Assembly: GCF_024502345.1 (NCBI RefSeq)
Contig: NZ_JALDNN010000001.1
Source: Escherichia coli
GTDB lineage: Bacteria > Pseudomonadota > Gammaproteobacteria > Enterobacterales > Enterobacteriaceae
Length of the DNA stretch: 64,000 bases
Reading direction: 5' to 3' (one strand)
Shown here: positions 43,858 through 44,067 of the stretch, one piece after another
Layout: every line of letters begins with the position of its first letter
How positions within the stretch are numbered: position 1 is the first letter of the stretch
Notes under the pieces: generated by a model
The model's input: only the letters and a program-made list of their open reading frames with translations
The model's database searches: none
Told to the model about the DNA's origin: nothing
Made by a program: the position numbers and the translations under genes

Positions 43858-43939
43858 GATCGATCTCCTTGTTTGTTAAGCCTTCGATCTCTAAAGCATT
43901 ATCGGACTGATATGCCATGTTGGGAAGAAGGTTTTGATC

Positions 43940-43967
43940 AGTTTAGGAAATCATCTCATTGTGTCAA
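43940..43967 (-). promoter_or_regulatory. Candidate sigma70 promoter for ybjQ-amiD
   Basis: Minus-strand TTGACA (-35) then a 16-nt spacer then TAAACT (-10), ~80 nt upstream of the ybjQ start; sequence-only prediction. Confidence 0.35.
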
Positions 43968-44067
43968 AAACACCCACTTAAGTCTTTACGATTATCCGTT
44001 GCATAACCCGGTATTGGTTTCATTATAGGCCACCGCTAACCTGTCGTATTATGTTGTACCAGCAACA

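Follow-up and report, generated by a model that had tools for sequence, protein, structure and literature searches.

Locus layout and the islet open reading frame

The window, that is, the whole stretch of 64,000 nucleotides of Escherichia coli DNA analysed here (contig NZ_JALDNN010000001.1 of assembly GCF_024502345.1), carries on its minus strand the genes ybjQ (43534–43857; YbjQ_1 family) and amiD (42707–43537). These two genes are co-oriented, overlap by 4 bp, and share a single entry, 'amiD,ybjQ', where E. coli transcription units are tabulated, i.e., they constitute an operon. Upstream of ybjQ, and likewise on the minus strand, is an open reading frame (ORF) encoding a pentapeptide-repeat protein (44068–45867). 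Beyond that, on the plus strand, lies ybjP (46482–46997). The gap from the stop codon of the ORF to ybjQ (43858–44067) is exactly 210 bp. Both the co-orientation of the ORF with ybjQ–amiD and this distance had been given in a preliminary description of the same DNA, and both agree with the ORF coordinates. Searches of the literature on ybjQ and on ECs0949–0952 returned nothing on the junction between ybjQ and the DNA that carries this ORF, a segment which is here described as an islet.

The islet ORF spans 599 codons when read from a GTG at 45867, though its likely start is an ATG at 45834, which gives 588 aa. That ATG is favoured because an allele of 81% identity possesses two 1-nt deletions between the candidate starts. 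PGAP annotation places the start at the ATG corresponding to 45834, with 589 aa in BEC1. The encoded domains are pentapeptide repeats (Pfam PF13599/PF00805), and homologues are named 'pentapeptide repeat-containing protein', with one source describing a putative type III effector. Searches with the ORF against NCBIfam, PADLOC and PDB sequences gave generic pentapeptide-repeat similarity and no specific family past threshold. Membership in the EspX effector family was considered and rejected, as in one published list the corresponding Sakai locus, ECs_0949/0950, is not among the named EspX proteins (EspX2, for example, is ECs0876).

The frame is intact in ten of twelve sampled alleles (599–600 aa from the GTG-equivalent start), while an eleventh, that of Gambia100248, has an unbroken frame only when read from the annotated ATG further downstream. 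In Sakai, a 7-bp insertion close to window position 44631 shifts the frame, resulting in a 413-aa product, and the EDL933 product is also of 413 aa. In many genomes the ORF is flagged 'incomplete; missing C-terminus' by RefSeq/PGAP, but in alleles L007, L008, L009 and L021–L024 the frame is intact, at 600 aa. The view that the ORF is mostly decayed, as RefSeq pseudogene flags would have it, was rejected accordingly as an artefact of annotation, with translated alleles intact except for those of Sakai and EDL933. Given an ORF that is intact in most alleles, the idea of a decayed islet which is kept only for its promoters has been downgraded to a low probability.

The islet and its ancestral empty site

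The islet extends over 2545 bp (43919–46463; it is assigned no strand). Its G+C content is 33.3%, versus 54.4% and 51.2% in the flanking DNA. In BLAST comparisons, homology to islet-free strains stops at 43918 and restarts at 46464, with the islet replacing 46 bp of the ancestral intergenic region. These 46 bp formed the middle of a divergent promoter region, 125 bp in length, that serves ybjQ and ybjP. Of 5426 complete E. coli genomes, 1127 carry the islet, or about a fifth of E. coli. Expressed differently, the ybjQ/ybjP locus was matched in 5424 E. coli genomes but its middle part in only about 1125. At least 80% of the islet is kept by 1124–1125 of the 1127 carriers, and partial deletions thus are almost absent.

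Other Escherichia as well as Salmonella Typhimurium and Citrobacter koseri possess a short, 125–127-bp intergenic region at this location, with 92% mean column identity, and this conservation takes in the DNA around the ybjQ promoter that in K-12 starts transcription at −62. As the same empty site is found in these outgroups, the empty site is ancestral and the islet a derived insertion. This combination of presence/absence polymorphism, an empty outgroup site, and deviant base composition is that of a horizontally acquired islet. Signatures of mobility were sought but a repeat search gave only short, weak repeats, none of them at the junctions, and among the islet ORFs there is no transposase, integrase or other mobility gene. 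A scan of all Rfam RNA families against 43500–46700 gave one sub-threshold, unrelated match, and a copy of the lost 46 bp, sought inside the islet, is absent. Relatives of the ORF were sought as well in a scan of one genome per species, in which neither a donor nor another species context was found. One candidate, a contig of a 'Collinsella sp.' metagenome-assembled genome (JAIJJM010000403.1, 2972 bp; our L012) which carries the islet ORF at 94% identity, was rejected as almost certainly bin contamination.

In two strains the islet has itself received an IS1, at 3016–3713 of L005 (O18ac:H14 873.10) and at 3126–3823 of L010 (strain 100416). One of these copies sits upstream of the ORF in the closest relative of the window. 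The other removes the 3' part of the ORF, with what is described below as a 54-bp promoter block remaining, along with about 57 bp of the adjoining tail.

The ancestral region includes a stretch, CGATAAT(C)AAT(G/T)ATATCCTTTCAAT(A/G)ATAGCGTATCAG (L001 1020–1065), that hardly varies between E. coli, Salmonella and Citrobacter, and its conservation exceeds what two promoters would need. The stretch may hold a regulator site, one which is loosely Fur-box-like and which would be gone from islet carriers.

Composition of the 210-bp interval

The interval between the islet ORF and ybjQ is probably a composite of three pieces: a core leader, an islet-side promoter block, and the 3' tail of the ORF. 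The first of these, as read outward from ybjQ, is ancestral core DNA (43858–43918, minus strand). It supplies the ybjQ 5' leader, including the ribosome-binding site AAGGAG (43870–43865, minus strand), and it is the end of a 1019-bp match having 96.7–97.2% identity to islet-free strains. Over these 61 positions alone, the window differs from two islet-free alleles at approximately six, i.e., about 90% identity. Next is a block of 54 bp (43919–43972, minus strand), which is near-invariant and which carries the distal promoter considered below. The remainder is a hypervariable, untranslated tail of 95 bp (43973–44067, minus strand).

How these pieces vary among carriers is quite different. The 54-bp block is 100% identical to that of the window in 1010 of the 1127 carriers and at least 95% identical in all of them, whereas at least 99% identity over the 95-bp tail is seen in only four, with 1002 falling at 80–90%. 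Among twelve islet alleles, nucleotide diversity (pi) is 0.008 in the core stretch, 0.009 in the block (2 of 54 sites variable), and 0.123 in the tail (32 of 95 sites variable, eight haplotypes). For comparison, it is 0.056 in the islet ORF (419 of 1800 sites) and 0.041 in the ybjQ coding sequence (33 of 324 sites). Fisher tests on variable sites separate the block from the tail (p = 1e-5) as well as from the ORF (p = 2e-4). Even the allele in which the ORF is at 81% identity displays zero mismatches over 43919–43968. Within the locus, constraint thus is strongest on the 54-bp block and weakest on the tail. Promoter function would be the reason for what appears to be purifying selection on the block, although its conservation could stem in part from some other function, such as a binding site for a regulator.

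The most diverse part of the region is 43973–44200, consisting of the tail plus the last approximately 130 nt of the ORF, with pi of up to 0.12. Mosaic patterns in the aligned alleles there suggest recombination between old alleles. Also overlapping the tail is a 58-aa antisense ORF (43852–44028, plus strand), formerly EDL933 gene 4980 (1035233–1035421) and since dropped from the current RefSeq, for which one internal start (1035334) has been reported, in exponential salt only (PMC10469882). Because it spans the hypervariable tail, this antisense ORF probably is not a gene.

Transcription starts of ybjQ with and without the islet

In K-12, which lacks the islet, ybjQ transcription has been mapped to starts at −62 (71 reads) and −34 (50 reads), the latter, with its 34-nt leader, being K-12 position 903782 (Kim et al. 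2012, PMC3415461 Table S1). RegulonDB adds a start at −76. The fates of these starts upon acquisition of the islet differ. The −34 start, 43891 in the window (minus strand), is common to islet-free K-12 and to islet-carrying EDL933. Its −10 hexamer, GATAAT (43903–43898, minus strand), lies in retained core DNA, and it is preceded by a weak −35, TTCCCA (43926–43921, minus strand), which is TTTCAA in K-12. The window and K-12 thus have their proximal promoter, ribosome-binding site and operon in common. The K-12 −62 start, on the other hand, coincides with the junction, at 43919. Its −10, read from the sequence as TGaTATCCT, and its −35 both fall within the replaced 46 bp, and this promoter therefore has been lost from islet carriers. 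The RegulonDB −76 start, too, falls within the replaced stretch.

What stands upstream of the proximal promoter instead is the sequence TTGACA-N16-TAAACT, which in the preliminary description was proposed to be a sigma-70 promoter for ybjQ. The −35 (43967–43962, minus strand) is found in DNA without homology to the ancestral intergenic region, and the −10 (43945–43940, minus strand), which is separated from it by a 16-nt spacer, is preceded by a C (cTAAACT). Together the two hexamers match the consensus at 10 of 12 positions. Nine sites with that many matches exist on the two strands of the 64-kb window, three of them on the minus strand of the islet, and, as the islet is AT-rich, the hexamer match on its own is weak evidence.

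Stronger evidence is supplied by start sites determined by Cappable-seq in EDL933, an islet-carrying O157:H7 strain, over eight conditions (Zehentner et al. 2023, PMC10469882 Table S5). For ybjQ (gene 4985) these data include a start at 1035442, which was detected during exponential growth in LB, M9 and salt and during stationary phase in LB, acid and salt, along with a second at 1035398, which was confined to stationary LB, acid and salt, i.e., in three of four stationary conditions and in none of four exponential ones. With ybjQ beginning at 1035476 in the EDL933 record, these are starts at −34 and −78, respectively. The 41-mers surrounding both occur exactly in the window, which places the distal start at 43935 (minus strand) and the proximal one at 43891, and the 54-bp block and leader are identical between EDL933 and the window. 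On the basis of that identity, the window strain should behave like EDL933 at the ybjQ promoters. Upstream of the block, behaviour could differ between the two strains, since in EDL933 the ORF is frameshifted and the 95-bp tail is of a different haplotype.

The base at −78 is the A of TAAACTgatcA, 5 nt past the hexamer. Starts usually are found 6–7 nt past the −10 hexamer, so the distance here is shorter. Nonetheless, two hexamers at a 16-nt spacing, with a 5' end mapped (in EDL933) just past the −10, describe a promoter of the sigma-70 family. The hexamers might otherwise be viewed as an accident of AT-rich DNA, with the conservation of the block reflecting hitch-hiking with the ybjQ flank, and promoter-like sites are in fact abundant in such DNA (13 found in 4 kb versus 8.7 expected, with three islet sites at 10 of 12 matches as noted). 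A capped 5' end mapped to 5 nt past the −10 in three independent conditions nevertheless essentially refutes a chance match. The block, furthermore, varies less than does the ybjQ coding sequence, and in the 81%-identity allele both of its flanks are more diverged than it is. An accidental origin of the match is therefore extremely improbable.

The sigma-S −10 consensus is CTATACT, with which cTAAACT agrees at six of seven positions. The C preceding the −10, in combination with detection solely in stationary phase, suggests the use of RpoS, that is, sigma-S probably uses the distal promoter, as judged from sequence resemblance and growth-phase pattern. The proposed sigma-70 promoter for ybjQ consequently is real, given a mapped EDL933 start just past TAAACT and an identical 54-bp block, but it is not native to the operon, with its −35 residing in islet-side DNA that took the place of the stretch bearing the −10 and −35 of the K-12 −62 start. 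To describe it plainly as sigma-70 also is probably too simple. Identity of ybjQ start sites irrespective of the islet, which had been named as evidence against a regulatory effect of the insertion, holds for the proximal start but not for the distal one.

How much of the distal promoter the islet has supplied is less clear-cut, as the left edge of the islet is fuzzy, extending from 43918 to about 43947. Anchored on the ybjQ ATG and aligned without gaps, identity to the ancestral sequence is approximately 90% to −60, 6 of 10 to −70, and about 45% to −90, and then falls to background. From −95 to −62 it is 15 of 34, where 9.7 would be the mean under the null (p about 0.035). Given this fuzzy junction and marginal identity, the TAAACT −10 could come from ancestral DNA that has diverged and not from the islet. 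Only TTGACA then would have come from the islet, with TAAACT descending from the ancestral TACGAT, presumably the −10 hexamer for the −76 start in K-12, and the insertion would have upgraded an existing promoter. TAAACT does line up with K-12 TACGAT in the gapless, ATG-anchored alignment, and the distal starts are close, at −76 (RegulonDB, K-12) and −78 (EDL933). The similarity is marginal, though, whereas between E. coli and Salmonella this stretch shows about 92% conservation, and BLAST matches extend no further than 43918. We consider such a hybrid origin to be rather unlikely.

In the ybjQ row of sheet 3 of Table S5 of PMC10469882, the RegulonDB −76 start of MG1655 and the EDL933 −78 start are scored as the same start, with a deviation of 2. 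This agreement in distance may be coincidental, as the two positions lie on DNA which is not detectably, or is only marginally, homologous.

Displacement of the ybjP promoter

The islet also separates ybjP from its ancestral upstream DNA, with only the 18 bp immediately upstream of the ybjP ATG representing core DNA. Transcription of ybjP in K-12 starts 55–56 nt upstream (−55 in PMC3415461 Table S1), within the shared 125-bp region. In EDL933 the starts are instead 177, 179 and 208 nt upstream (PMC10469882), and these map to window positions 46305, 46303 and 46274 (plus strand), all in islet DNA. The ybjP promoter, that is, is also displaced by the islet. In K-12, then, the −62 and −76 starts of ybjQ and the −55/−56 starts of ybjP share a single 125-bp region, whereas in the window the −62 promoter is gone and distal transcription of ybjQ begins at −78, on DNA which is non-homologous.

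Termination and possible read-through

It had been noted, too, that the islet ORF ends with no obvious intrinsic terminator, and this holds up. A terminator scan of the minus strand over 43858–44067 gave no match, a 243-nt RNA from the region folds no more stably than its shuffles (z = +0.5), and an exhaustive hairpin scan of seven alleles gave no G+C-rich stem followed by a U-run, with the best structures being ragged and of −5 to −10 kcal/mol. What does exist directly past the coding sequence is a 6-bp hairpin, ATGTTG-N6-CAACAT (44068–44051, minus strand), which covers the stop codon and is followed by AAUA rather than by a U-run. Its stability is about −4 to −6 kcal/mol, its stem is mostly kept among alleles, its loop is variable, and it does not amount to a canonical terminator. 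Some alleles, though not that of the window, possess in addition a weak ACAGG-N8-CCTGT hairpin followed by TTTTT, located over the −35. There is some likeness to intrinsic terminators, i.e., a short hairpin directly past the stop codon and, in some alleles, a second one with its TTTTT. The stems, however, are weak, being of just 5–6 bp and of −4 to −7 kcal/mol, no U-run follows the hairpin at the stop codon, and there is no G+C-rich stem-loop that leads directly into one.

Nor does the sequence look like that of a Rho-dependent terminator, which would present some 70–80 nt of C-rich, G-poor untranslated RNA. The tail is G-rich (C/G = 0.64), which would make it a poor site for Rho loading, and C exceeds G only in the promoter and leader part of the interval. 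The weak constraint on the tail, the lowest anywhere in the locus, also argues against a selected terminator structure there.

With nothing in the sequence that would block it were the islet ORF induced, read-through into ybjQ–amiD, as the preliminary description envisaged, is possible in terms of architecture. Transcripts of the islet ORF might then add materially to ybjQ–amiD expression or, alternatively, occlude its promoters. Consistent with this are the shared orientation, the lack of an intrinsic terminator in any of seven alleles, the poor prospects for Rho loading on the tail, and an ORF whose frame is unbroken in the window as well as in most alleles. There is also a promoter-like site, TTGATA-N18-GATAAT (46038–46009, minus strand; 10 of 12 matches), approximately 170 nt upstream of the ORF. 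In EDL933, however, no start of any class, whether gene-associated, downstream, internal or antisense, was recorded for gene 4970, the islet ORF, under any of the eight conditions, including none from that candidate promoter, whereas ybjQ has two starts of its own (PMC10469882). The 210 nt of untranslated RNA, furthermore, would still present an opportunity for Rho, and nothing about a tail so unconstrained suggests a selected coupling. Material read-through thus is unsupported by these start sites, and we view it as unlikely. EDL933 is an imperfect proxy for the window strain in this regard, as its ORF is frameshifted.

Possible H-NS silencing

The absence of islet ORF starts in EDL933 fits with a silent, AT-rich gene. 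It had also been suggested previously that silencing of the islet by H-NS could spread to the ybjQ promoter. H-NS filaments extending from the 33% G+C islet would then lower expression of ybjQ–amiD in comparison with strains lacking the islet, with the distal promoter escaping only with sigma-S in stationary phase. The contrast in base composition with the 51–54% G+C flanks, the startless islet ORF, and the stationary-phase-only distal start all are in keeping with such spreading, and suppression by H-NS of initiation within AT-rich acquired DNA is established (Singh et al. 2014, PMC3923964). The proximal −34 start, however, is used in six of eight EDL933 conditions and is the same start as that of K-12. 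Transcription of ybjQ hence is not abolished and the operon is not silenced. A literature search for H-NS ChIP or binding data covering an islet-carrying strain returned no data set. Spreading of consequence to ybjQ–amiD expression strikes us as improbable. The locus does resemble known xenogeneic silencing by H-NS in consisting of a low-G+C acquired gene that is startless over eight EDL933 conditions and that has, at its edge, a promoter active in stationary phase. It differs in that the adjacent core promoter is active, such that any putative silencing by H-NS would be without effective spread over that promoter.

Interpretation

As best these observations can be put together, the islet entered a compact, back-to-back ybjQ/ybjP promoter region which is conserved across genera. 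In doing so it removed the −10 and −35 of the K-12 −62 start and moved ybjP 2.5 kb away. Carriers would then express ybjQ–amiD from the retained proximal promoter, constitutively, and additionally from a distal replacement whose pattern is that of stationary phase and which sigma-S probably uses, while the islet ORF would be largely silent in the laboratory. This explanation as a whole, i.e., a three-piece interval, a replacement distal promoter and a largely silent islet ORF, we consider likely to be correct. The previously suggested regulatory side effect of the insertion on a core operon is thereby borne out at the level of architecture, with one native promoter kept, one lost, and one gained.

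Regulatory rewiring by inserted DNA is a known kind of event, and no new mechanism is involved here. Outward or hybrid promoters created at the ends of insertion sequences or islands are the nearest parallel, as here, too, an adjacent core gene is driven by a TTGACA, and possibly also by a −10, from the edge of inserted DNA, while the native proximal −10 and start have been retained. Here, though, the insert also has replaced 46 bp, and both ybjQ and ybjP have received new upstream promoters. Unlike insertion sequences, moreover, the islet displays no terminal inverted repeats, target-site duplication, transposase or integrase, nor, going by the scan of Rfam families, a tRNA.

Going further, the islet might be regulatorily entrenched, with ybjQ–amiD as well as ybjP depending on islet promoters and the 54-bp block being a selected, RpoS-type promoter. 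We would not expect this to be so. If it were, then entrenchment would explain why the islet is complete or absent, as seen among those 1124–1125 of 1127 carriers, and part of the expression of YbjQ and of AmiD, a peptidoglycan-recycling amidase, would be shifted to stationary phase. About a fifth of E. coli would be concerned, O157:H7 included and also, judged from protein-database names only, Shigella sonnei.

More generally, published start maps with and without the islet show a small acquired gene rewiring two core transcription units. They supply a caution as well, in that starts compared solely by distance to the start codon, such as −76 versus −78, can sit on non-homologous DNA. Expression of ybjQ, amiD and ybjP in O157:H7 and in other carriers is not to be inferred from their regulation in K-12.
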